The notes under the pieces were generated by a model. It was not told the DNA's origin and made no database searches. It worked only from the letters and a program-made list of their open reading frames with translations. From Candidatus Doudnabacteria bacterium (GTDB lineage: Bacteria > Patescibacteriota > Doudnabacteria > UBA920 > O2-02-FULL-48-8): a stretch of 64,000 nucleotides of DNA. Location: NCBI GenBank assembly GCA_037200925.1, contig JBBCGO010000001.1, positions 9,552 through 73,551 of the forward strand, read 5' to 3'. Shown piece after piece: positions 2,436 through 58,048 of the stretch (positions are counted from its first letter, which is position 1; every line of letters starts with the position of its first letter). The position numbers and the translations under genes are program-made.

Positions 2436-3403
2436 AATATTTAGTCACAGGCGGGGCGGGATTCATCGGCTCTAACTTTATTCATTATTTGTTTGCCAAA
2501 TACCCTGATTGTGAAGTAGTGAACGTGGATAAATTGACCTATGCGGGGAATTTGGAAAACGTTAAAGAATTTGAAAACGATCCTCGCTATAAATTCGTAA
2601 AAGGCGATATTGGCGATCTTGAACTGATGAAGCAAACAATGCAGGGAGTTGACATTGTGGTCAATTTTGCGGCGGAATCACACAATGACAGGGCAATTTT
2701 GGATCCCGGAATATTTGTGAGTACCAATGTCTTGGGGACGCAAGTTCTTTTAGAAGCAGCTAAACAAGCGAATGTTCCGAGATTCCACCATATCTCAACA
2801 TGCGAAGTGTTTGGCGATATGGAGTTGGAAGAAAAAAGAGCATTTAAGGAAACCGATCCGTTCCTTCCCAAAACTCCTTATAATGCTTCGAAAGCCGGAG
2901 CAAACCATGTTGTGATGGCTTATTTTCATACTTTTAAAACTCCTGTGACCATCAGTCATTGTTCAAATAATTACGGCCCCTACCAGTTTCCTGAAAAGTT
3001 AATTCCTCTTTTTACAACCAATGCGTTGCAGGGAAAAAAACTGCCGTTGTTTAAAAGCAGCCAAAACAAAAGAGAGTGGCTCCACGTGGAAGATCATTGC
3101 AGGGCCATAGATCTGATATTGCAAAAGGGCAAACTCGGCCAGGCTTACAATATCGGCAGCGGGGTTGAAAAATCGGTGGAAGAAATAGCCGATTCGATCT
3201 TGCAGATTCTCGGAAAGGACAAAAGCCTGAAAACTTATGTTCCTGACCGCCTCCAGCACGATCTTCGTTATTTGCTTGACTGCTCCAAAATCAAGAACGA
3301 ACTGGGCTGGGAACCTGTCATAAATTTTGAAGAAGGCGTACAAGCAACAGTCGATTGGTATAAGCAAAACCCGGATTGGTGGCAGAAATTACTGGACAAA
3401 TAA
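2432..3403 (+). CDS. rfbB: dTDP-glucose 4,6-dehydratase
   Basis: N-terminal MKYLVTGGAGFIGSNF Rossmann motif and the YxxxK SDR region (YNASKAG). It overlaps the HIT stop by ATGA. Confidence 0.9.
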   Translation: MKYLVTGGAGFIGSNFIHYLFAKYPDCEVVNVDKLTYAGNLENVKEFENDPRYKFVKGDIGDLELMKQTMQGVDIVVNFAAESHNDRAILDPGIFVSTNVLGTQVLLEAAKQANVPRFHHISTCEVFGDMELEEKRAFKETDPFLPKTPYNASKAGANHVVMAYFHTFKTPVTISHCSNNYGPYQFPEKLIPLFTTNALQGKKLPLFKSSQNKREWLHVEDHCRAIDLILQKGKLGQAYNIGSGVEKSVEEIADSILQILGKDKSLKTYVPDRLQHDLRYLLDCSKIKNELGWEPVINFEEGVQATVDWYKQNPDWWQKLLDK

Positions 3404-5826: not shown

Positions 5827-6741
5827 ATGCGACCGATCGTCAGCGAAAAAAATCACAAATATCTTTCCACATTTATTGTCAGCTTTGGCATGCTTTTGGG
5901 TTTTGAAGCGCTCAGCTACATCGTCGGGATCTATCAGCTAAATACCGGTCTGTTCGTGGCGTTCTATGTTTATGCCTTCCATATTTTCTGGCTGACATTT
6001 TTGTTTGACCTGCATCTGAAGAAACGCTCCGTACTGGCAGCAGCCGGATTGGACCACAAAGGCGCGCAGATGGTTTGGAATGCCTGCAAAGAACGTGTCA
6101 GACACGTCTTCCAATGGGAATATTTCCGGCATTATCAGAATTATTTGGTTCTGCCCGGCCTGCTTTACTGGGCCACGGTTATTTTGATCTTTCTCAATCC
6201 GTTCAACACTTTATTGAAACAATCGGTCATTTTTTCGGCAAGCATTGCGATGACCGTGGCATATTGGTTCATAAAAGAGCATTTCAGCAAGCGCTTGGAG
6301 GCCCAGTATCACTGGATCACGGTTCTGGCTTTGGTGAAATTGTTCACGGCGTTTCTGATCTACTCGGCCGTGATCGGCGTGACTTTTCATTACGGCTATG
6401 ACGTTGGTTTTTTGCTGCCGGCCGTGGTCACGATCACGTTCCTGCTCGTTTACCAGGCGCTGTTCCAGCATAATCTTCTGAGTTTCCCGATTTTTATCTG
6501 GATCGTGATCTTAGCGCTGGTTATGGGCATCGTTTCTGTTTGGGTTTACAATTATTGGAATACCGAATATTTCACAGCCGGACTGGTCATGGTTGCGGTT
6601 TACAATATGCTGTGGGGGATCCTGCATCATTATTTGGACAAGACTTTGACCCAGAAAGTCGTATTTGAATATTTAGCCATGATGATATTGATAATCTCGT
6701 TCCTGTTCGCCTCTCACAATTTCAACCAACGTGTGATATAG
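5827..6741 (+). CDS. hypothetical polytopic membrane protein
   Basis: 304-aa ORF, highly hydrophobic with about 9 TM segments. It directly follows rfbA. Confidence 0.45.
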   Translation: MRPIVSEKNHKYLSTFIVSFGMLLGFEALSYIVGIYQLNTGLFVAFYVYAFHIFWLTFLFDLHLKKRSVLAAAGLDHKGAQMVWNACKERVRHVFQWEYFRHYQNYLVLPGLLYWATVILIFLNPFNTLLKQSVIFSASIAMTVAYWFIKEHFSKRLEAQYHWITVLALVKLFTAFLIYSAVIGVTFHYGYDVGFLLPAVVTITFLLVYQALFQHNLLSFPIFIWIVILALVMGIVSVWVYNYWNTEYFTAGLVMVAVYNMLWGILHHYLDKTLTQKVVFEYLAMMILIISFLFASHNFNQRVI

Positions 6742-9388: not shown

Positions 9389-9970
9389 ATGCAGAAGTGG
9401 ACGATAGTACTCAGTTTGGCTTGCTTTGTTTCCGCCGGGTGCCACAAAGGCAATCCGATGGAACCAACGCCGACTACGACAACGCCCAATGGCGCGATCC
9501 CGGTCGCTCAGGCGGCGAAGGTCCAGATTCAGCTGAACCAAGCTGTGGACCGGACCGTCAACGCCATCTCGATGACGCTCAAGGGCGTTTCCGGCTCGGA
9601 CGAACTCATCAACGGCTTGCCGTTGAGCGAGCCGCTCACGGCGACCGACCGCTGGTCAGGCGCCCTGATCCACGTGCTGTCCTACAACGCCGTGGTCAAC
9701 GGCAAAGTCGGCTGGTCGGGAAATACGAACATTCCGTTCACGCCGCCGAGCCATGATCACTTCCAGTTCGACAGCATTCCGACCAACGGAACGCTAGATA
9801 TCGCGATCGAGATGATCCCGGGCAACCAGCCTGTGGGTGGGCCGTTCCACCTCATCAAAGTTGACCCTTCTGCTTCGAATGTGGAGATCACGTCCCCTCT
9901 GGGCGCAAGATACACGTTCGAGAAGGACTCTTCGGGATTGGTCCATATCAAAGGGCCGCGTCCCTACTAG
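9389..9970 (+). CDS. lipoprotein of unknown function (in GC-rich island)
   Basis: Signal peptide with lipobox (LSLACFVSAGC), an AGGAGG RBS 6 nt upstream, and about 60% GC against about 45% in flanking genes. Confidence 0.55.
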   Translation: MQKWTIVLSLACFVSAGCHKGNPMEPTPTTTTPNGAIPVAQAAKVQIQLNQAVDRTVNAISMTLKGVSGSDELINGLPLSEPLTATDRWSGALIHVLSYNAVVNGKVGWSGNTNIPFTPPSHDHFQFDSIPTNGTLDIAIEMIPGNQPVGGPFHLIKVDPSASNVEITSPLGARYTFEKDSSGLVHIKGPRPY

Positions 9971-9977
9971 TTTCTAA

Positions 9978-10008
9978 CTTGGGCTTGCTCTTCTCGAGCA
10001 AGCCCAAG
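9978..10008 (+). terminator. perfect 13-bp stem-loop (CTTGGGCTTGCTC/GAGCAAGCCCAAG) with no U-tract, after the island lipoprotein gene
   Basis: Inverted repeat read directly. It is followed by CCCCCTTTCCCC rather than a T-run. Confidence 0.45.
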
Positions 10009-16612: not shown

Positions 16613-17593
16613 ATGAAAGAAATATTTCCTTATAAAAAATCAATTGACTCGAAAGTAGTAAAAGCTGCGTCTGAAATTCTCGGCGTTCCTGTTATTTCTT
16701 CAAGCAGATTGAAAGGGGGCGTGGTTAATTATGTCTATAAATTAAAAACAGCTGAACGTACAGTTGTGGTCAAGGTTTTTCGGAATCGTTTTTGGCCCGA
16801 AGACGGCAAATTGCAATGGATAGAAAAGCAGTTCGCCAAGCATAAGGTCCCGCATGCAAAGATGATCTATTACAGCAGAAATAATAAATATTTTCTGTTC
16901 GGGTTGATGATATCAGAATATGTAGCCGGACTGAATGCAATGGAAGCGGTTAAAAAAGGCGTCCATACAATGGCTGATTCTTATAAAGCCACGGGCAATC
17001 TTTTGAAAAGGGTTCATAAGATAAAGTTAAAAAAATTCGGGCAGATAAATTACGGGAAAGGCACAGACAGTAATTTTATAAATCGTGAGCTAAAAAAAGC
17101 GACAGGACTGATCGAAAAGCTGATACATCATAAGAATCTTAAACACGAAATTCTTAATAAATTTATTTCAGCCGTGAGAAATGGACTCGAACCGTTCAAA
17201 AAGAGATTTAAACCGGTGCTGATCCATGGCGATGCAACCCGTGATAATTCTATTTTGGCTAATAACGGTGAATTTATTCTTATAGACTGGGATAATGCCA
17301 AGTCAAATATCGCGCTGTGGGATTATTTTGTTTTGACGTCGTGGTGGCCGATCGGACCAGAGTTTAAAAATCCCGCAAAAAAGAAAGAGTTAAAGCAGGC
17401 ATTTTTTGACGGTTACGGGAGATCTGGGTTTACGAATGATGAAATTGAACATATTGAGCCAGCAATCCATCTCCTGATATATGCAGCAGTTATGGACTTT
17501 TTTTTATTTAACAAAAAAGATTATAAAAGTTTCGGCCAAACCCGCAAGCAGTTTGAGCATATTATTAGGAAAATTAAAATCAAAAATTTGTAA
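16613..17593 (+). CDS. aminoglycoside/choline-kinase-like phosphotransferase (APH family)
   Basis: Motifs LIHGDATRDNSIL and ILIDWDNA (Brenner and DxD motifs of APH/ChoK kinases). Confidence 0.65.
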   Translation: MKEIFPYKKSIDSKVVKAASEILGVPVISSSRLKGGVVNYVYKLKTAERTVVVKVFRNRFWPEDGKLQWIEKQFAKHKVPHAKMIYYSRNNKYFLFGLMISEYVAGLNAMEAVKKGVHTMADSYKATGNLLKRVHKIKLKKFGQINYGKGTDSNFINRELKKATGLIEKLIHHKNLKHEILNKFISAVRNGLEPFKKRFKPVLIHGDATRDNSILANNGEFILIDWDNAKSNIALWDYFVLTSWWPIGPEFKNPAKKKELKQAFFDGYGRSGFTNDEIEHIEPAIHLLIYAAVMDFFLFNKKDYKSFGQTRKQFEHIIRKIKIKNL

Positions 17594-38822: not shown

Positions 38823-40553
38823 ATGAATTCCAAAGAACTGCGGCAAAAATATCTGAAATTTTTTGAAGAAAAAGGACATAAAGTCATCCCTTCAGCCTCG
38901 CTTGTGCCCGCCAATGATCCGACGGTTTTGTTTACGACCGCCGGCATGCACCCGCTGGTCCCTTTTTTATTGGGTGAAAAACATCCGATCGGCACCCGTT
39001 TAGTCAATTACCAGAAATGTTTGCGCACGGATGATATTGATGAGGTCGGCGATGATACCCATAATACTTTTTTTGAAATGCTCGGCAACTGGTCTTTGGG
39101 CGACTATTGGAAAGACGATGCGATCAAATGGTCTTATGAGTTTTTGACGGATAAAAAATGGCTGGGCATCGAAAAAGAAAAACTGGCTGTTACGGTCTTT
39201 GAAGGTGATACTGACGCTGCCAAAGATGAGGAATCAATAAATATTTGGAAGTCTTTGGGTTTTGGCGATGACCGGATCAAACCCTTGGGGAAAAAAGATA
39301 ACTGGTGGGGGCCTGCCGGGGCCACAGGGCCGTGCGGTCCTGACACGGAAATGTTTTACTGGACCGGTGAAGATGCGCCGCCGGCAAGATTTGACCCATC
39401 CGACAAGCGCTGGGTTGAGATCTGGAATAATGTTTTCATGCAGTACAATAAAACCCAAGAAGGCAAATTTGAGCCTTTAAAACAGCGCAACGTGGACACT
39501 GGAATGGGCATAGAAAGGACCACTGCGGCGCTGGAAGGTAAAACGAGCGCTTATGATACCGAATTATTTGCGCCGATCATCCAAAGGATCAGATTGCTTG
39601 CCGACAAACAAGATCAGAGATCAGAACGGATCATTGCCGACCACATGCGTGCGTCAGTTTTTTTGCTTGCGGATGGAGTGACCCCGTCCAATAAAGACAG
39701 AGGATACATTTTGCGCCGACTCATCCGCAGGGGAGTGACTTTCGGGCAAAAATTGGGGATCGACCATGATTTTACGGCTGAGATCGCAGAGATCATTGTG
39801 CTTGAATATGAATCAGTTTATCCGGAACTTAAGAACTCAAGCATAGAAGCCGAGCTGAAGAAAGAAGAGATGAAATTCCGGGGAACTCTGGGCAGAGGCC
39901 TTAAACTTTTGGAAGGAAAATCGCATATCACCGGCAAAGAAGCTTTTGATCTGTTCCAAACTTACGGTTTTCCGTATGAATTGATCGAAGAATTCGTCAC
40001 TGTCACAAACCCTGAGGAATTTGAGAAAGAGTTTGAACAACATCAGGGGCTTTCACGCACTTCGTCTGCCGGGCAATTTAAAGGCGGCCTTTCATCGCAT
40101 TCCGATAAAGTCGTGCGGCTGCATACGGCCACTCATCTTATGAATGCAGCGCTTCGCAAAGTTCTGGGCGCCAACGTTTGGCAGAAGGGGAGCAATATAA
40201 CCGAAGAGCGCACGCGGTTTGATTTTACGCATGACAGAAAAATGACCGATGAGGAAAAAAAGCAGGTTGAAGAATTGGTTAACGATTGGATCACGCGCGA
40301 TCTGTCGGTAAAAAAAGAAATATTGCCGCTTGAGGAAGCAAGGAAACTTGGGGCGATCGGCGTGTTTGGCGAGAAATATCCGGAAACAGTTTCTGTTTAC
40401 ACTATTTTTGACCCCGAAACCTCCGAAGTTGTCTCCAGAGAATTTTGCGGGGGCCCCCACGTGGAGCATACAGGCGTCATCGGCAAATTTAAGATCCAGA
40501 AAGAGGAAGCTGTATCCGCGGGCGTAAGGAGAATTAAAGCGATTGTTATATGA
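38823..40553 (+). CDS. alaS: alanine--tRNA ligase, short form (catalytic plus editing domains, no C-Ala domain)
   Basis: N-terminal class II AlaRS motifs (FTTAGMHPLVPF, LGNWSLGDYW) and editing-domain HxxxH..CGG.H (HTATHL, FCGGPHV). The protein ends at 576 aa. Predicted leaderless (TATAAT, 6 nt, ATG). Confidence 0.85.
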   Translation: MNSKELRQKYLKFFEEKGHKVIPSASLVPANDPTVLFTTAGMHPLVPFLLGEKHPIGTRLVNYQKCLRTDDIDEVGDDTHNTFFEMLGNWSLGDYWKDDAIKWSYEFLTDKKWLGIEKEKLAVTVFEGDTDAAKDEESINIWKSLGFGDDRIKPLGKKDNWWGPAGATGPCGPDTEMFYWTGEDAPPARFDPSDKRWVEIWNNVFMQYNKTQEGKFEPLKQRNVDTGMGIERTTAALEGKTSAYDTELFAPIIQRIRLLADKQDQRSERIIADHMRASVFLLADGVTPSNKDRGYILRRLIRRGVTFGQKLGIDHDFTAEIAEIIVLEYESVYPELKNSSIEAELKKEEMKFRGTLGRGLKLLEGKSHITGKEAFDLFQTYGFPYELIEEFVTVTNPEEFEKEFEQHQGLSRTSSAGQFKGGLSSHSDKVVRLHTATHLMNAALRKVLGANVWQKGSNITEERTRFDFTHDRKMTDEEKKQVEELVNDWITRDLSVKKEILPLEEARKLGAIGVFGEKYPETVSVYTIFDPETSEVVSREFCGGPHVEHTGVIGKFKIQKEEAVSAGVRRIKAIVI

Positions 40554-43176: not shown

Positions 43177-43551
43177 TTACTCGACGGGGAAGAGTCCAAG
43201 CGAGGCGAAGAGATCGAGCAAATAGCTCCTTGGCACCGGCAAAACATCGTGCCTAGCTATGCCGTGCGCCTGAAGCCTTTCTGCCCGGTCAGAAGCGGTC
43301 ATAGGCACTCCGTACATGGTCGCGACTTCCAGAACGACGTTGTGTTTACCTTCCGAACCTTTGCTGCTGGTCAGGTTGGCAAACTTCGCCGAGTGTTTCG
43401 CGTTGATTGGGAGTGGGAGCATCCATCCGTCCTCCCTGTCGACTCCTGGGATTGTGTTTGGGCCTGATGCCAGAAACGCAGACAACGACGCGAACTGCTG
43501 GGCCGTGAGACCGTCGAGCTTGATAATCATTCTGTCCTCCTGAAGAAACAC
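43177..43551 (-). CDS. hypothetical protein (GC-rich, hairpin-flanked, opposite strand)
   Basis: 124-aa ORF with no recognisable motif and its own terminator. The first Met may be at MIIKLDG. Confidence 0.35.
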   Translation of the reverse strand: MFLQEDRMIIKLDGLTAQQFASLSAFLASGPNTIPGVDREDGWMLPLPINAKHSAKFANLTSSKGSEGKHNVVLEVATMYGVPMTASDRAERLQAHGIARHDVLPVPRSYLLDLFASLGLFPVE

Positions 43552-43732
43552 CGTTTCTTTTTAGGAAAGTGGCACCGCCACAAATCCCGAGTTGCCGTTA
43601 TTGCAACTTAAAATTATACTCCTTTTTTGTGGTTTTGTCAATAGTTCCGGGTAAATGGTGGCTAATCTAAGCTTTTTTTAACCTCACCCCCGGCCCCTCT
43701 CCTCGCGAGGAGAGGGGAGTTCTAAATTGAAG

Positions 43733-43761
43733 TTGACAGCAAATCGATTTCTTGTTAATAT
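43733..43761 (+). promoter_or_regulatory. sigma70 promoter (TTGACA, 17 nt, TAATAT) of the infA-rpmJ-rpsM-rpsK-rpsD-rpoA-rplQ operon, about 200-nt leader
   Basis: Hexamers read directly. It is preceded by a GC palindrome, CCCCTCTCCTCGCGAGGAGAGGGG. Confidence 0.55.
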
Positions 43762-43967
43762 TTCGAAGTATTTTACCCCGTTAGAGATTGATAATTTAAT
43801 GACGGTGTAAAGTTTTTGTCTAGTTATTTATAAAGTAAACCATCGTTTTATATCAGCTTTGTTGATCTCTAACGGGGTTTAGCAATCAATTTACACATAT
43901 TCCTACCGGAGCTCAAGATTTAGGGACGCAAGGCCCACAAAAAAATACAATAGAACTCGAGGGCAAA

Positions 43968-44150
43968 GTGGTAGAATCTTTACCCAATGCTGTTTTTCGT
44001 GTGCAGATCGAGTCCGGACAGATAATTTTGGCTCATATTGCGGGAAAATTACGGGTCAATAAGATCCGTGTCCTGCCGGGAGATAAAGTGATTATTGAGG
44101 TTACCCCGTATGATTTAACGCGAGGCAGAGTTATTAGAAGGTTAAGGTAA
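43968..44150 (+). CDS. infA: translation initiation factor IF-1
   Basis: ..[55 protein letters not shown] is an S1-like IF1 signature. The ORF track starts at a GTG, and the reading frame stays open upstream (..IELEGK..), so the true start may be non-canonical. Confidence 0.85.
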
Positions 44151-44280
44151 TTAATTTACGAAAAAATTGAGTCGCAGTCCCGATTTATCGGGACGAGAAC
44201 AATTTTTTCGAGAGGAGTAATAAGTCGACCGGAGCGCATTTTACGAAGTAAAATCGCGAAGGTTCGACCAATTACGACGA
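44151..44280 (+). promoter_or_regulatory. structured intercistronic element, copy 1 (infA stop to rpmJ ATG)
   Basis: It shares conserved blocks (TTAATTACGAAAAAATTGAGTCGCAG, GAGAACAATTTTTTCGAGAGGAG, GACCGnAGCG, GCGAAG, GACGAATG) with the element at 44829-44957. The two hairpins between the blocks differ in sequence but keep their pairing. Confidence 0.55.
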
Positions 44281-44394
44281 ATGAAAGTCCGTGCAAGTGT
44301 AAAACCTATGTGCAAGAAATGCAAGATAGTCCGCAGACGGGGCGTAATTTTTGTTATTTGTGAAATTCCTAAACATAAGCAAAGACAAGGTTAA
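44281..44394 (+). CDS. rpmJ: 50S ribosomal protein L36
   Basis: 37-aa [37 protein letters not shown], with the zinc-ribbon CxxC..C..H pattern. It is too short for the ORF track. Confidence 0.85.
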
Positions 44395-44432
44395 CGGGAA
44401 AATTTCTAATTTCTAATGTCTAATTCCTAAAT

Positions 44433-44828
44433 ATGGCACTAGTACGTATAGCGGGTGTTACATTACCACAGCAAAAGCGGATCGAAGCCGCTCTGCCTTA
44501 CATTTTCGGCGTGGGCTGGCCGGGTTCGCAGAAAATTTTGGCAGCCACTAAAGTGGACCCGAACAAGCGGACAAGCGAACTGACCGAAGCTGAAGTGGCT
44601 AAGATCCGCGAATTTATCGAAAAGAATTATATGGTGGAAGGCGCGCTGCGCCAGCAGATCACGGGCAATATCAAACTTAAAAAAGAGATCGGCTCATACG
44701 AAGGCATCCGGCATATCCGCGGCTTGCCTGTGCGAGGCCAGCGGACAAGGACCAATTCCCGGACTCGCCGTGGCAACGTACGCCGAACAGCAGGGTCAGG
44801 ACGCAAATCAAGCTCTGAGAAAACCTAG
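44433..44828 (+). CDS. rpsM: 30S ribosomal protein S13
   Basis: [28 protein letters not shown].. and the C-terminal [18 protein letters not shown] motif. Confidence 0.9.
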
Positions 44829-44957
44829 TAATTAATTACGAAAAAATTGAGTCGCAGGCGCGACAGCGCCGAGAACAATTTTTTCGAGAGGAGCGGCAAG
44901 TAGACCGAAGCGTATCCCGCCAAGGCGGGATTGCGAAGTGTCTACCCGACGCGACGA
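44829..44957 (+). promoter_or_regulatory. structured intercistronic element, copy 2 (rpsM stop to rpsK ATG)
   Basis: Same block order as copy 1. Its hairpins are GGCGCGACAGCGCC and ATCCCGCCAAGGCGGGAT, replacing TCCCGATTTATCGGGA and ATTTTACGAAGTAAAAT. Confidence 0.55.
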
Positions 44958-45404
44958 ATGGGACAGCAAAAGGCTAGTACAATTCCGGCGGAAGAAGATA
45001 AGGCTAAACAAGCCACTACTGCTGTTAGTGCACCGAAGAAAAAGAAGTCCAAGATCAAGGTTGCGCGCGGACACATCTATGTACAGTCCACTTACAACAA
45101 CACGATCATTACGGTGACCGATGTTTCGGGCAATGTCATTGGCTGGGGCAGCGCAGGAAGAACCGGCTTTAAAGGCAGCAAGAAATCCACGCCTTATGCG
45201 GCGCAGAAAACCATGGAAGACACCATCGCGCGCCTGAAAGAAACAGGCCTGAATGAAGTTGACGTGTTCGTCAAAGGCATTGGCACCGGACGCGAGTCTG
45301 CGGTGCGCGCCCTGCAGGGCAGCGGGTTTAATATCATTTCCATCCAGGACCAAACTCCGATACCGCACGGCGGAGTTAGACCAAAGAAAGCAAGAAGGGT
45401 ATAA
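44958..45404 (+). CDS. rpsK: 30S ribosomal protein S11
   Basis: ..ARGHIYVQSTYNNTIITVTDVSGNVIGWGSAGRTGFKGSKKSTPYAAQ.. The start is set at the ATG within the conserved GACGAATG; the ORF track starts at an upstream TTG. Confidence 0.9.
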   Translation: MGQQKASTIPAEEDKAKQATTAVSAPKKKKSKIKVARGHIYVQSTYNNTIITVTDVSGNVIGWGSAGRTGFKGSKKSTPYAAQKTMEDTIARLKETGLNEVDVFVKGIGTGRESAVRALQGSGFNIISIQDQTPIPHGGVRPKKARRV

Positions 45405-45435
45405 AAATTTCTAATTTCTAATTACTAATTTCTAA

Positions 45436-46044
45436 ATGGCGAGATACACAGGGCCAAAAATCAGACAATCACGCAAATTCGGCGAAGCTTTTACGAAAAA
45501 AGCCGAGAAATATTTGGCGAAGCGGAATTACCGCCCCGGCCAGCACGGCCAAAACCCGCAGCGGGTCTCTGAATACGGCATGCAGCTTCGCGAAAAGCAG
45601 AAAGCCAAGATCATTTACGGACTGATGGAGCGCCAGTTCCGCCGTTATTATGAGATCGCGACCAAGAAAGTCGGTATTACGGGGGATGCGTTATTGCAGC
45701 TTTTGGAGTTAAGATTGGACAACATCGTCTACCGCATGGGTTTTGCCCAGACCCGGCCGCAGGCAAGACAGCTGGTATCCCACGGTTTTTTTGACGTTAA
45801 CGGCAAGAAAGTCAACATTCCGTCCCTCCAGGTCAAGGTCGGGGACCAGATAAGCATCCGTGATATCAAGAAAGATTCCGGCTATGTGAAAAATCTGGCG
45901 CTGGTTTTGGCCAATGCAAAGACTGTGGAATGGGTTTCCCTGGACCCGAAGAATTTTTCCGGAAAAGTTCTGTCCAAGCCCTCACGCGAACAGCTGGACC
46001 TCAGCCTAAATACCCAGCTGATCGTAGAATATTACTCAAGATAA
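45436..46044 (+). CDS. rpsD: 30S ribosomal protein S4
   Basis: MARYTGPKIRQSRKFG.. N-terminus and S4 domain. Confidence 0.9.
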   Translation: MARYTGPKIRQSRKFGEAFTKKAEKYLAKRNYRPGQHGQNPQRVSEYGMQLREKQKAKIIYGLMERQFRRYYEIATKKVGITGDALLQLLELRLDNIVYRMGFAQTRPQARQLVSHGFFDVNGKKVNIPSLQVKVGDQISIRDIKKDSGYVKNLALVLANAKTVEWVSLDPKNFSGKVLSKPSREQLDLSLNTQLIVEYYSR

Positions 46045-46086
46045 TTAGAATTTCTAATATTTAATTAACCTAATTAATCTAAACAT

Positions 46087-57670: not shown

Positions 57671-58048
57671 GCTTCTTAAGTAAGCGCGGCAGTCGCTCTC
57701 ATCGCAAGATGAGGGAGGAAAGTCCGAACACGTTGGTTGGATGGAATTCTCATGAGTTCATGCAACCTTAGGTAGCGGGTAATTCCCGTCGTGAGAGATC
57801 AAGAGATGCGAACAGTGACGCCTGATCAGAAATGAAAAGGCTCCTAAGCGATTAGGATGAAGCCAATGGTAACATTGGATTGAAACGGCTAAATTCTTAC
57901 CTAATAGTGCAATATCAAATAGGCTCTTAAATGAGCGGGTTGATAGCTTGAGGTGCGCAGCAATGCGTGTCCCAGATAGATGATTGCCTCTGCTTTGGGT
58001 AAAACCAAGGCAACAGACAGAATTCGGCTTACAACTTGCTTAGGAAGC
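57671..58048 (+). ncRNA. rnpB: RNase P RNA (bacterial type)
   Basis: Conserved P4 strands GAGGAAAGTCCGAACAC and ACAGACAGAATTCGGCTTA. A 5'/3' P1 pairing (GCTTCTTAAG/CTTAGGAAGC) is present. Length about 378 nt with its own promoter and terminator. Confidence 0.8.

Follow-up and report, generated by a model that had tools for sequence, protein, structure and literature searches.

We analysed a stretch of 64,000 nucleotides (nt) from a Candidatus Doudnabacteria bacterium (GenBank assembly GCA_037200925.1, contig JBBCGO010000001.1, positions 9,552 to 73,551), hereafter the window, which carries a ribosomal operon with the gene order infA, rpmJ, rpsM, rpsK, rpsD, rpoA, rplQ, rplM, rpsI. Two spacers of this operon, infA-rpmJ and rpsM-rpsK, align along their whole length, about 133 nt, and each is filled by one copy (W1 and W2, respectively) of an element that is a real, selected structure of the sense-strand RNA. 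The preliminary description of this locus, made from the sequence, had placed the same element of about 130 nt in both gaps; its gene coordinates were right and its blocks TTACGAAAAAATTGAGTCGCAG, CGAGAACAATTTTTTCGAGAGGAG, GACCGnAGCG, GCGAAG, and CGACGAATG are identical in W1 and W2, with a 1-nt indel between the copies in the first (TTAATTTACG versus TTAATTACG). The segments that vary are the hairpin stems. Both copies are also found, unchanged, on contig JBBCBH010000057.1 of GCA_037975565.1 (by exact-protein look-ups). The genes and parts of the two copies are listed here, with scores from a covariance model (CM) of the element; SD stands for Shine-Dalgarno.

43899..44150, plus strand: infA (IF1), neighbour 5' of W1; the element's AU-rich 5' flank overlaps its TAA stop codon (44148-50).
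44149..44283, plus strand: W1, whole element; occupies all of the infA-rpmJ spacer, its last letters being the rpmJ start codon; CM score 157.4 bits, 139.3 bits with R2.
44159..44210, plus strand: W1 domain 1; helix P1 pairs 44159-44169 (CGAAAAAAUUG) with 44200-44210 (CAAUUUUUUCG), and beyond it lie an AG bulge (44170-71), P1b (UC/GA), a GCA/GA internal loop, and the variable hairpin P1c (44177-44194).
44211..44217, plus strand: W1 purine linker AGAGGAG (SD-like).
44217..44275, plus strand: W1 domain 2; P2 GUAAU/AUUAC, P3 GUCGACC/GG-U-UCGAC, a 3x3 loop GGA/GAA, and P4, in the fold GCG, a C bulge, AUUUUAC-GAA-GUAAAAU, and CGC.
44276..44283, plus strand: W1 3' strand GACGA and the rpmJ ATG (44281-44283).
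44281..44394, plus strand: rpmJ (ribosomal protein L36), the gene served by W1; PF00444 on the identical protein.
44433..44828, plus strand: rpsM (S13), neighbour 5' of W2; stop codon TAG (44826-28).
44829..44960, plus strand: W2, whole element; occupies all of the rpsM-rpsK spacer, its last letters being the rpsK start codon; CM score 158 bits.
44839..44886, plus strand: W2 domain 1; P1 pairs 44839-44849 with 44876-44886, followed by the AG bulge, P1b, and the GCA/GA loop.
44857..44870, plus strand: W2 domain 1 variable hairpin, GGCGC-GACA-GCGCC.
44887..44893, plus strand: W2 purine linker AGAGGAG (SD-like).
44893..44952, plus strand: W2 domain 2; P2 GCG/CGC, P3 GUAGACC/G-U-GUCUAC, a 3x3 loop GAA/GAA, and P4, in the fold GCG, a U bulge, AUCCCGC-CAAG-GCGGGAU, and UGC.
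44953..44960, plus strand: W2 3' strand GACGA and the rpsK ATG (44958-44960).
44958..45404, plus strand: rpsK (S11), the gene served by W2.

Architecture of the element

The element consists of two rod-like hairpin domains of about 18-22 base pairs (bp) each, preceded by an AU-rich 5' flank that contains UAAUUAAUUA in most copies, counting those found outside the window. The P1 helix of domain 1 is 11 bp long and sets an A-tract strand (CGAAAAAAUUG) against a U-tract strand (CAAUUUUUUCG); inside it follow the conserved AG bulge, P1b, the conserved GCA/GA internal loop, and P1c. P1b measures 2-4 bp and covaries (UC/GA versus GUGC/GCAC), and P1c is free in both sequence and length. AGAGGAG stands directly 3' of P1, and CGACGA forms the 3' end of the element; both are invariant in nine aligned full copies, and a variant that has domain 1 only (locus L132; loci outside the window carry L numbers) has GAGGAAGG in place of AGAGGAG. 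Domain 2 is closed by an invariant G...C pair and continues with P2, which has 2-5 bp and covaries (UAAU/AUUA, CG/CG, CAAC/GUUG, CAC/GUG, CAU/AUG), and P3, which is G(U/C)NGA(C/U) with its complement, then an invariant C-G pair and the 3x3 loop GNA/GAA. P4 begins GC(G/A)/(C/U)GC and carries a pyrimidine bulge, two conserved A-U pairs, and a variable tip. In all minimum free energy (MFE) folds AGAGGAG lies opposite CGACGA, with G-C pairs separated by GA/GA mismatches, and thus both strands belong to the closing stem of domain 2. In this model P1 directly adjoins the closing stem, with no linker, an arrangement that would place the downstream start next to the 5' flank.

Fold and covariation

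W1 folds with an MFE of -48.1 kcal/mol (z = -6.3) and W2 with -54.9 kcal/mol (z = -6.0), and none of the shuffles (0/200) is as stable. Eight copies folded independently all adopt one MFE architecture, with z from -3.4 to -7.6. RNAalifold applied to W1 and W2 yields 37 pairs, with both sides changed in 9, which bears out the earlier claim that the hairpins covary between the two copies. When seven copies are aligned by the CM, 99.2% of cells are paired and compensatory changes are found in 20 of 37 pairs; for the two helices of domain 1 the counts are 7 of 13 (helix 1) and 3 of 5 (helix 2). Shuffled controls never reach that level of pairing or of compensatory change, and slid partners pair in 33-45% of cells. 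Because the CM alignment is fitted to the model, domain 2 was recounted on a plain MAFFT alignment of nine copies, which is not structure-fitted, with 95.4% paired against 25-43% for slid partners and compensatory changes in 11 of 22 pairs. In several helices, G-U pairs are compatible with the sense strand only.

The preliminary description had read this pattern as a selected RNA structure and not a promoter, and the covariation on seven to nine copies, the sense-only G-U pairs, and the lack of a shared promoter consensus support that choice. An internal sigma-70 promoter was rejected: a 9/12 match lies in the variable P4 hairpin of W1 only and is absent from W2, and the real promoters of promoter-proximal copies (described below) lie upstream of the element. 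An intrinsic terminator was rejected as well, with no sense-strand call in W1 or W2 and with a U run that lies 8-9 nt past the GC-rich stem and is itself paired with the A-tract. Both features of the terminator result also bear on the suggestion that the element is a self-cleaving ribozyme or that the A-tract, hairpin, and U-tract of domain 1 form a factor-dependent attenuator or antiterminator. A conserved core with variable stems in an intergenic location is typical of small ribozymes, and a U5-6 run follows an irregular hairpin in every copy, the domain-1-only variant included; but no ribozyme model matches even at E <= 10, and a likeness to loop A of the hairpin ribozyme (AGUC/AGAA) is confined to the copies of the window, without conservation in L082, L097, and L129. 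We regard either form of this reading as highly improbable.

No known family accounts for the element. In Rfam 15, whose families include ribosomal protein leaders, riboswitches, and the hammerhead, twister, pistol, hatchet, hairpin, and HDV ribozymes, nothing overlaps it, either in the window at the gathering threshold or in 43500-45600 at E <= 10, and at E <= 5 the only overlap across L095, L097, and L092 is a chance-level match to mir-7940 (19.5 bits against a gathering score of 80, E = 3, L095 678-736). Literature searches on RNA motifs of the candidate phyla radiation (CPR) and Doudnabacteria found nothing relevant. A resemblance of CGAGAGGA...GACCGGAG to the sarcin-ricin loop was judged a coincidence, the fourth G of GACCGGAG varying among G, A, and U; the window itself contains no rRNA. 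The element is a previously undescribed, covariation-supported RNA family of Candidatus Doudnabacteria, very small uncultured bacteria.

Copies in related genomes

A CM scan of the 64-kb window recovers only W1 and W2 (157-158 bits); the next matches, at E > 0.0007, are reverse-strand echoes. Beyond these two, about nine further copies or fragments lie in Candidatus Doudnabacteria contigs. L082, like L092 a contig with an identical L36, has its copy between rpsK and rpsD and not at the gaps occupied in the window (85, then 118 bits). One pattern scan of a metagenome collection, with matches filtered by the CM, gave 29 matches, 4 real and 25 chance, and it placed a copy before rpmF just 3' of a TTGACC...TTATAA promoter (L095), another before rpsP, 3' of TTGTCA-17-TATACT (L097), and a third abutting tRNA-Leu(CAG) (L106). 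Further loci were fetched through homologues of L32, Fpg, and S16. Orthologous copies precede fpg, a DNA-repair gene, in two species (L124 and L129), each 3' of an extended -10 promoter. The L130 contig, whose S16 is identical to that of the source genome, holds a full copy at 6117-6260 whose CGACGA runs straight into position +1 of tRNA-Val(GAC); this copy heads a tRNA-Val-rnc-smc unit, rnc lying 98 nt past the tRNA and 170 nt past the element. At 17339-17377 the same contig has, 3' of the yraN terminator, the first 39 nt of another copy, ended by the contig end; judging from what follows there in relatives, this cut copy probably precedes nusA. The domain-1-only variant of L132 occupies the orthologous tRNA-Val leader. 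All copies run in the same sense as the gene downstream, their CGACGA stands 0-3 nt from the AUG or from tRNA +1, and the positions at fpg and tRNA-Val are kept between species.

L132 has a further peculiarity at 6020-6450, where an insertion of about 350 nt has on each side a copy of the initial 9 nt of tRNA-Val (GGACGGTTA) and is followed by an intact tRNA-Val at 6374-6448. The insertion contains structured GC-rich repeats and a small open reading frame (ORF; about 6138-6383) that appears by eye to be of the GIY-YIG type, without a domain match.

Elsewhere the searches were negative. A pattern scan of viral contigs gave 8 matches and no real copies, and no element was found at 34 related Doudnabacteria/CPR alpha-operon loci or in five of ten other loci of about 10-21 kb fetched later. 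In other relatives (L125-L127, L128, L133-L135) copies are missing at rpmF, rpsP, and fpg, so occupancy is patchy. Relatives do hold further copies, one of them in the ribosomal operon of L082, but the nearest relatives do not carry the element at the gaps occupied in the window.

The distribution also tells against one of the functions first proposed, that of an autoregulatory site bound by a ribosomal protein. The element stands before fpg (L124, L129), tRNA-Leu (L106), and tRNA-Val (L130) and occupies different gaps in close relatives, and it is therefore neither specific to the ribosomal operon nor an autoregulatory site of that operon's ribosomal proteins. Eight different genes lie downstream of copies, and the gaps filled in the window are without it in L001, L002, and L081 as in the 34 related loci, which led us to reject an autoregulatory leader. 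We likewise rejected a link to zinc proteins, which L36, L32, and Fpg are, as S11, S16, and the tRNAs do not fit.

A more general operator or aptamer is a different matter. Here a global trans-acting factor (an RNA-binding protein, a ribosomal protein, or a small molecule) would stabilise the AGAGGAG/CGACGA closing helix or domain 1 and so co-regulate information-processing genes. The strict conservation of unpaired nucleotides in loops and bulges (AG, GCA/GA, GNA/GAA, and the pyrimidine bulge) beside variable stems is consistent with recognition of this kind, as is the predominance of translation, transcription, and repair components among the downstream genes. Patchy occupancy, with orthologous genes in close relatives lacking the element, is unlike a conserved regulon, however; the terminal loops are not conserved, and no known riboswitch or leader family matches. 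A K-turn in domain 1 or 2 was excluded by inspection: G1b-A1n is possible at GCGAA-G / A-GC, but 2b/2n is G-G, U-A, G-U, or U-U and not A-G. We consider an operator unlikely.

A cassette-like distribution

Comparison with relatives suggests how the element comes and goes. L002 has empty sites at both window gaps, TAAgATG (1 nt) and TAAgatATG (3 nt), and L001 and L081 have unrelated spacers there. Conversely, the source genome shares its fpg promoter with L129 and its rpmF promoter with L095, and its leaders at these genes are 27-38 nt long and lack the element. The element-free rpmF leader reads ACGAAAAAAU-AUG, which is the 5' strand of P1, so the A-rich strand may derive from an ordinary A-rich leader. 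L097 is a mosaic that joins a domain 1 of the L082 type to a domain 2 of the type found in W1 and L124. The fixed end position, the empty sites, and the mosaic domains together point to a reusable leader cassette and not to an operon-specific operator, and the cassette may have spread between genes by duplication and recombination.

Presence or absence between close relatives, occupation of different gaps in genomes with identical L36, mosaic domains with long blocks identical between copies, and the other hairpin cassettes that litter the same spacers could also be the marks of a selfish small mobile element (MITE-, PATE-, or repeat-like) that is tolerated wherever expression survives. The ends of the element carry no terminal inverted repeats, however, and comparison of filled with empty sites reveals no target-site duplication, on which grounds a MITE (miniature inverted-repeat transposable element) or a repeat derived from an insertion sequence was rejected; nor is there a conserved target sequence. 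Copy number is low, with two in the window and none in half of the ten loci fetched later, and the hairpins vary while the loops stay, which is the opposite of what transposase recognition would require. A selfish origin is also hard to square with copies whose orientation and end are, without exception, fixed strictly relative to the downstream gene and with positions conserved between species at fpg and tRNA-Val, and we think it quite improbable.

Other cassettes occur in the same spacers. A second one in the window, unstructured, AU-rich, and 34 nt long (AAAATTTCTAATTTCTAATnnCTAATTnCTAAAT), is present at 44399-44432 and 45404-45437 (91% identical), ending at the rpsM and rpsD ATG, so that it and the structured element alternate along the operon; its repetition before rpsM and rpsD indicates that whole initiation regions are reused in this genome. 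TTTCTAAT appears again at 46051 (before rpoA), 13871, and 22123. L081 at 2940-3000 (before rpmJ) and L124 at 9945-10000 (before rpmF) share another small cassette, a hairpin CCCCTCGGCTCG...CTCGCTCGGGG that continues as an AAAATTT...AAATTTT mini-hairpin ending at the ATG. In L082, two copies of an AT-rich element of about 90 nt (TAATAATTAATTTTnAGTTTTnAGTT...ACTAGAAA), at 1958-2053 and 2168-2262, fill the infA-rpmJ and rpmJ-rpsM gaps, and these share a starting TAATTAATT with the structured element.

A proposed split ribosome-binding site

The reading that we tentatively favour, though with less than even confidence, is that the element is a cis-acting sense-strand leader or intercistronic cassette that, in front of ORFs, would act as a split translation-initiation region (TIR). 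Neither rpmJ nor rpsK has an SD-like sequence within 20 nt of its ATG. The SD-like sequence noted earlier is present (GAGAGGAG at 44210-44217 and 44886-44893), at 63-64 nt 5' of the ATG codons (44281, 44958) and not at about 100 nt as first stated. The organism does appear to use SD pairing, since AGGAGG-type SDs occur at -4 to -20 in 8 of 40 window genes. The preliminary description had also asked whether folding would bring the SD to the start codon, and both copies give the same architecture, with about 58 nt enclosed in one hairpin domain that ends 5-7 nt (CGACGA) before the AUG. As the 58 nt or so that separate AGAGGAG from the start are enclosed in all folds, the structure predicts that SD and AUG are brought side by side. 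Before ORFs, domain 2 would loop out about 58 nt and place AGGAG 5-7 nt from the AUG; after the closing pair, the seven ORF copies have spacings of 5, 5, 6, 7, 5, 5, and 5 nt. The element thus combines a gap between SD and AUG far above 15 nt, a conserved covarying hairpin within it, and a remaining spacer of GACGA plus 0-2 nt. With an arrangement of this kind, initiation would be led by an SD at genes that in relatives depend on translational coupling or on AU-rich leaders without an SD. Split TIRs have been demonstrated for T4 genes 38 and 25, where folding reduces the spacing from 22 nt to 5 and from 27 nt to 11 (PMC3014915, citing Nivinskas 1999 and Malys & Nivinskas 2009).

As a separate observation on start regions, many window genes (e.g. 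those at 38823, 30888, 27457, 8093, and 47032) have a TATAAT-like hexamer 6-9 nt before the ATG and no SD, a sequence pattern that suggests widespread leaderless mRNAs in this organism; many genes look either leaderless or AU-led.

Several points weigh against a split TIR. Three of the roughly 11 copies precede tRNAs, where an SD has no role, and the full tRNA-linked copies (L106, L130) retain AGAGGAG and CGACGA, with GAGGAAGG in L132, which lacks domain 2. AGAGGAG is therefore not only an SD, and the purine strands may be purely structural, the SD reading being possibly coincidental. A 58-nt hairpin between SD and AUG far exceeds that of any split TIR known to be proven, and the translation model leaves the role of domain 1 unexplained. 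The copies are also few and come partly from loci picked through ribosomal protein genes. The tRNA-linked copies are not explained by translation, and hence the family must have, or must also have, a role at the level of RNA. Such a role would suit the two hairpins, each of about 20 bp, and the conserved internal loops, and it could operate before tRNAs too; candidates are recognition by a processing or stability factor (as a double-stranded substrate of the RNase III type or by another protein) and insulation of the downstream RNA.

Possible RNA processing and 5' ends

A role at the RNA level might be the main function. The two irregular hairpins of about 20 bp, possibly coaxial, would then be substrates of RNase III or another endonuclease, and cleavage would separate cistrons and tRNAs from the upstream RNA and leave protective hairpins behind, effects on translation being secondary. 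This suits mRNA leaders, tRNA leaders, and intercistronic spacers alike. Each domain is about two turns of helix long, its internal loops conserved and its stems variable, and T7 RNase III sites have the same design. The organism encodes RNase III and RNase Y; rnc (PF00636/PF14622/PF00035) lies at 6434-7117 in L130 and is also present in L132 and L133, so that an irregular hairpin of about two turns is found in an organism that has the enzyme. The copy that heads the tRNA-Val-rnc-smc unit, and the one probably before nusA, would by analogy resemble known RNase III targets. Neither the invariance of AGAGGAG nor the constant end of the element 0-3 nt before the AUG is explained by a processing signal, however, and the G-A-rich non-Watson-Crick segments would make poor RNase III substrates. 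It is possible, if doubtful, that the element is primarily a processing or stability signal.

A more specific version holds that the element is a module that defines 5' ends, in which cleavage immediately 3' of CGACGA would be carried out either by a host nuclease, directed by the two conserved rods, or by the RNA itself. The tRNAs would be freed at or near +1, the internal cistrons rpmJ, rpsK, and rpsD would become leaderless AUG-first mRNAs, like the many genes of this organism that seem to start leaderless already, and AGAGGAG/CGACGA would be a structural purine-purine helix instead of an SD. We judge this distinctly unlikely.

Other features around the operon

The infA gene has no in-frame ATG, GTG, or TTG upstream of the conserved N-terminus, and ATT at 43899 is the only plausible start, giving an IF1 of 83 amino acids (aa); the ATT and the leader are kept in L002, L082, and L081, and the gene call in L081 (83 aa) begins at that ATT. 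An inserted 104-nt hairpin with perfect 14-bp ends (ACCCCGTTAGAGAT...ATCTCTAACGGGGT) occupies 43775-43878 of the infA leader, between a TTGACA-17-TAATAT promoter (43733-43761) and the conserved leader, and has no counterpart in L082, L081, and L002, whose infA leaders are collinear with it in all other respects. The infA-rpmJ gap of L001 is filled by a hairpin of related sequence, CCCGTTAGA...TCAACGGGG. On the minus strand, 43613-43641 is a perfect consensus promoter (TTGACA-17-TATAAT) directed away from infA, and it is adjoined by a GC-rich palindrome (43692-43717) that resembles a bidirectional terminator. The window also contains an RNase P RNA of the bacterial type A at 57677-58046, with 101.5 bits against an Rfam gathering score of 100 and with several consensus segments shortened or replaced.

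Comparison with known systems

To our knowledge, the genomes of the CPR (Patescibacteria) are minimal, and very little of the RNA biology of these bacteria has been characterised. In this setting an RNA family that is specific to one lineage, supported by covariation, and reused before unrelated essential genes that yield both mRNAs and tRNAs is of interest, and an element of about 130 nt can be tested in vitro without culturing the organism. If the element does form a split ribosome-binding site, it would hold a structured insertion far longer than any other known to be accepted between an SD and its start codon and would be a natural portable expression cassette or 'insulator'; if it is a processing signal, it would reveal how these organisms punctuate polycistronic transcripts.

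Leader RNAs of ribosomal protein genes, as collected in Rfam, are like the element in being structured RNAs directly upstream of such genes that overlap the ribosome-binding site, but here one motif stands before five different ribosomal protein genes, fpg, and two tRNAs, and no Rfam leader matches it. The dispersed repeats ERIC, BOX, Correia, and REP/BIME and the so-called mobile promoters or untranslated regions share its size of about 130 nt, its dispersal and co-transcription, its folding as RNA, and its presence or absence between strains. Unlike them, the element is not a single long palindrome with inverted-repeat ends, has a very low copy number, is strict in its orientation and position relative to the downstream start, and has stems that vary and loops that are fixed.

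The split TIRs of T4 genes 38 and 25 resemble the element in having a distant SD and AUG with a stable hairpin between them that restores the spacing, and one of the two is also intercistronic (the gene 26-25 junction). They differ in scale, with 22-27 nt of linear distance compared to a loop-out of about 58 nt (63-64 nt linear), and the element, which is known from sequence and fold, adds conserved internal loops, a second upstream domain, dispersal before many genes, and tRNA-linked copies. The intercistronic RNase III signals of T7 and the rnc, nusA, and pnp leader sites of E. coli are similarly hairpins of about two turns with conserved loops and variable stems, lie between cistrons or in leaders, are repeated in one genome, and can influence translation of the next gene. 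The element is unlike them in its two domains, its SD-like linker, and its fixed distance to the start codon, and the likeness is one of design. Of these systems, the split TIR and the T7-type intercistronic signal for processing, singly or together, appear closest to how the element works.

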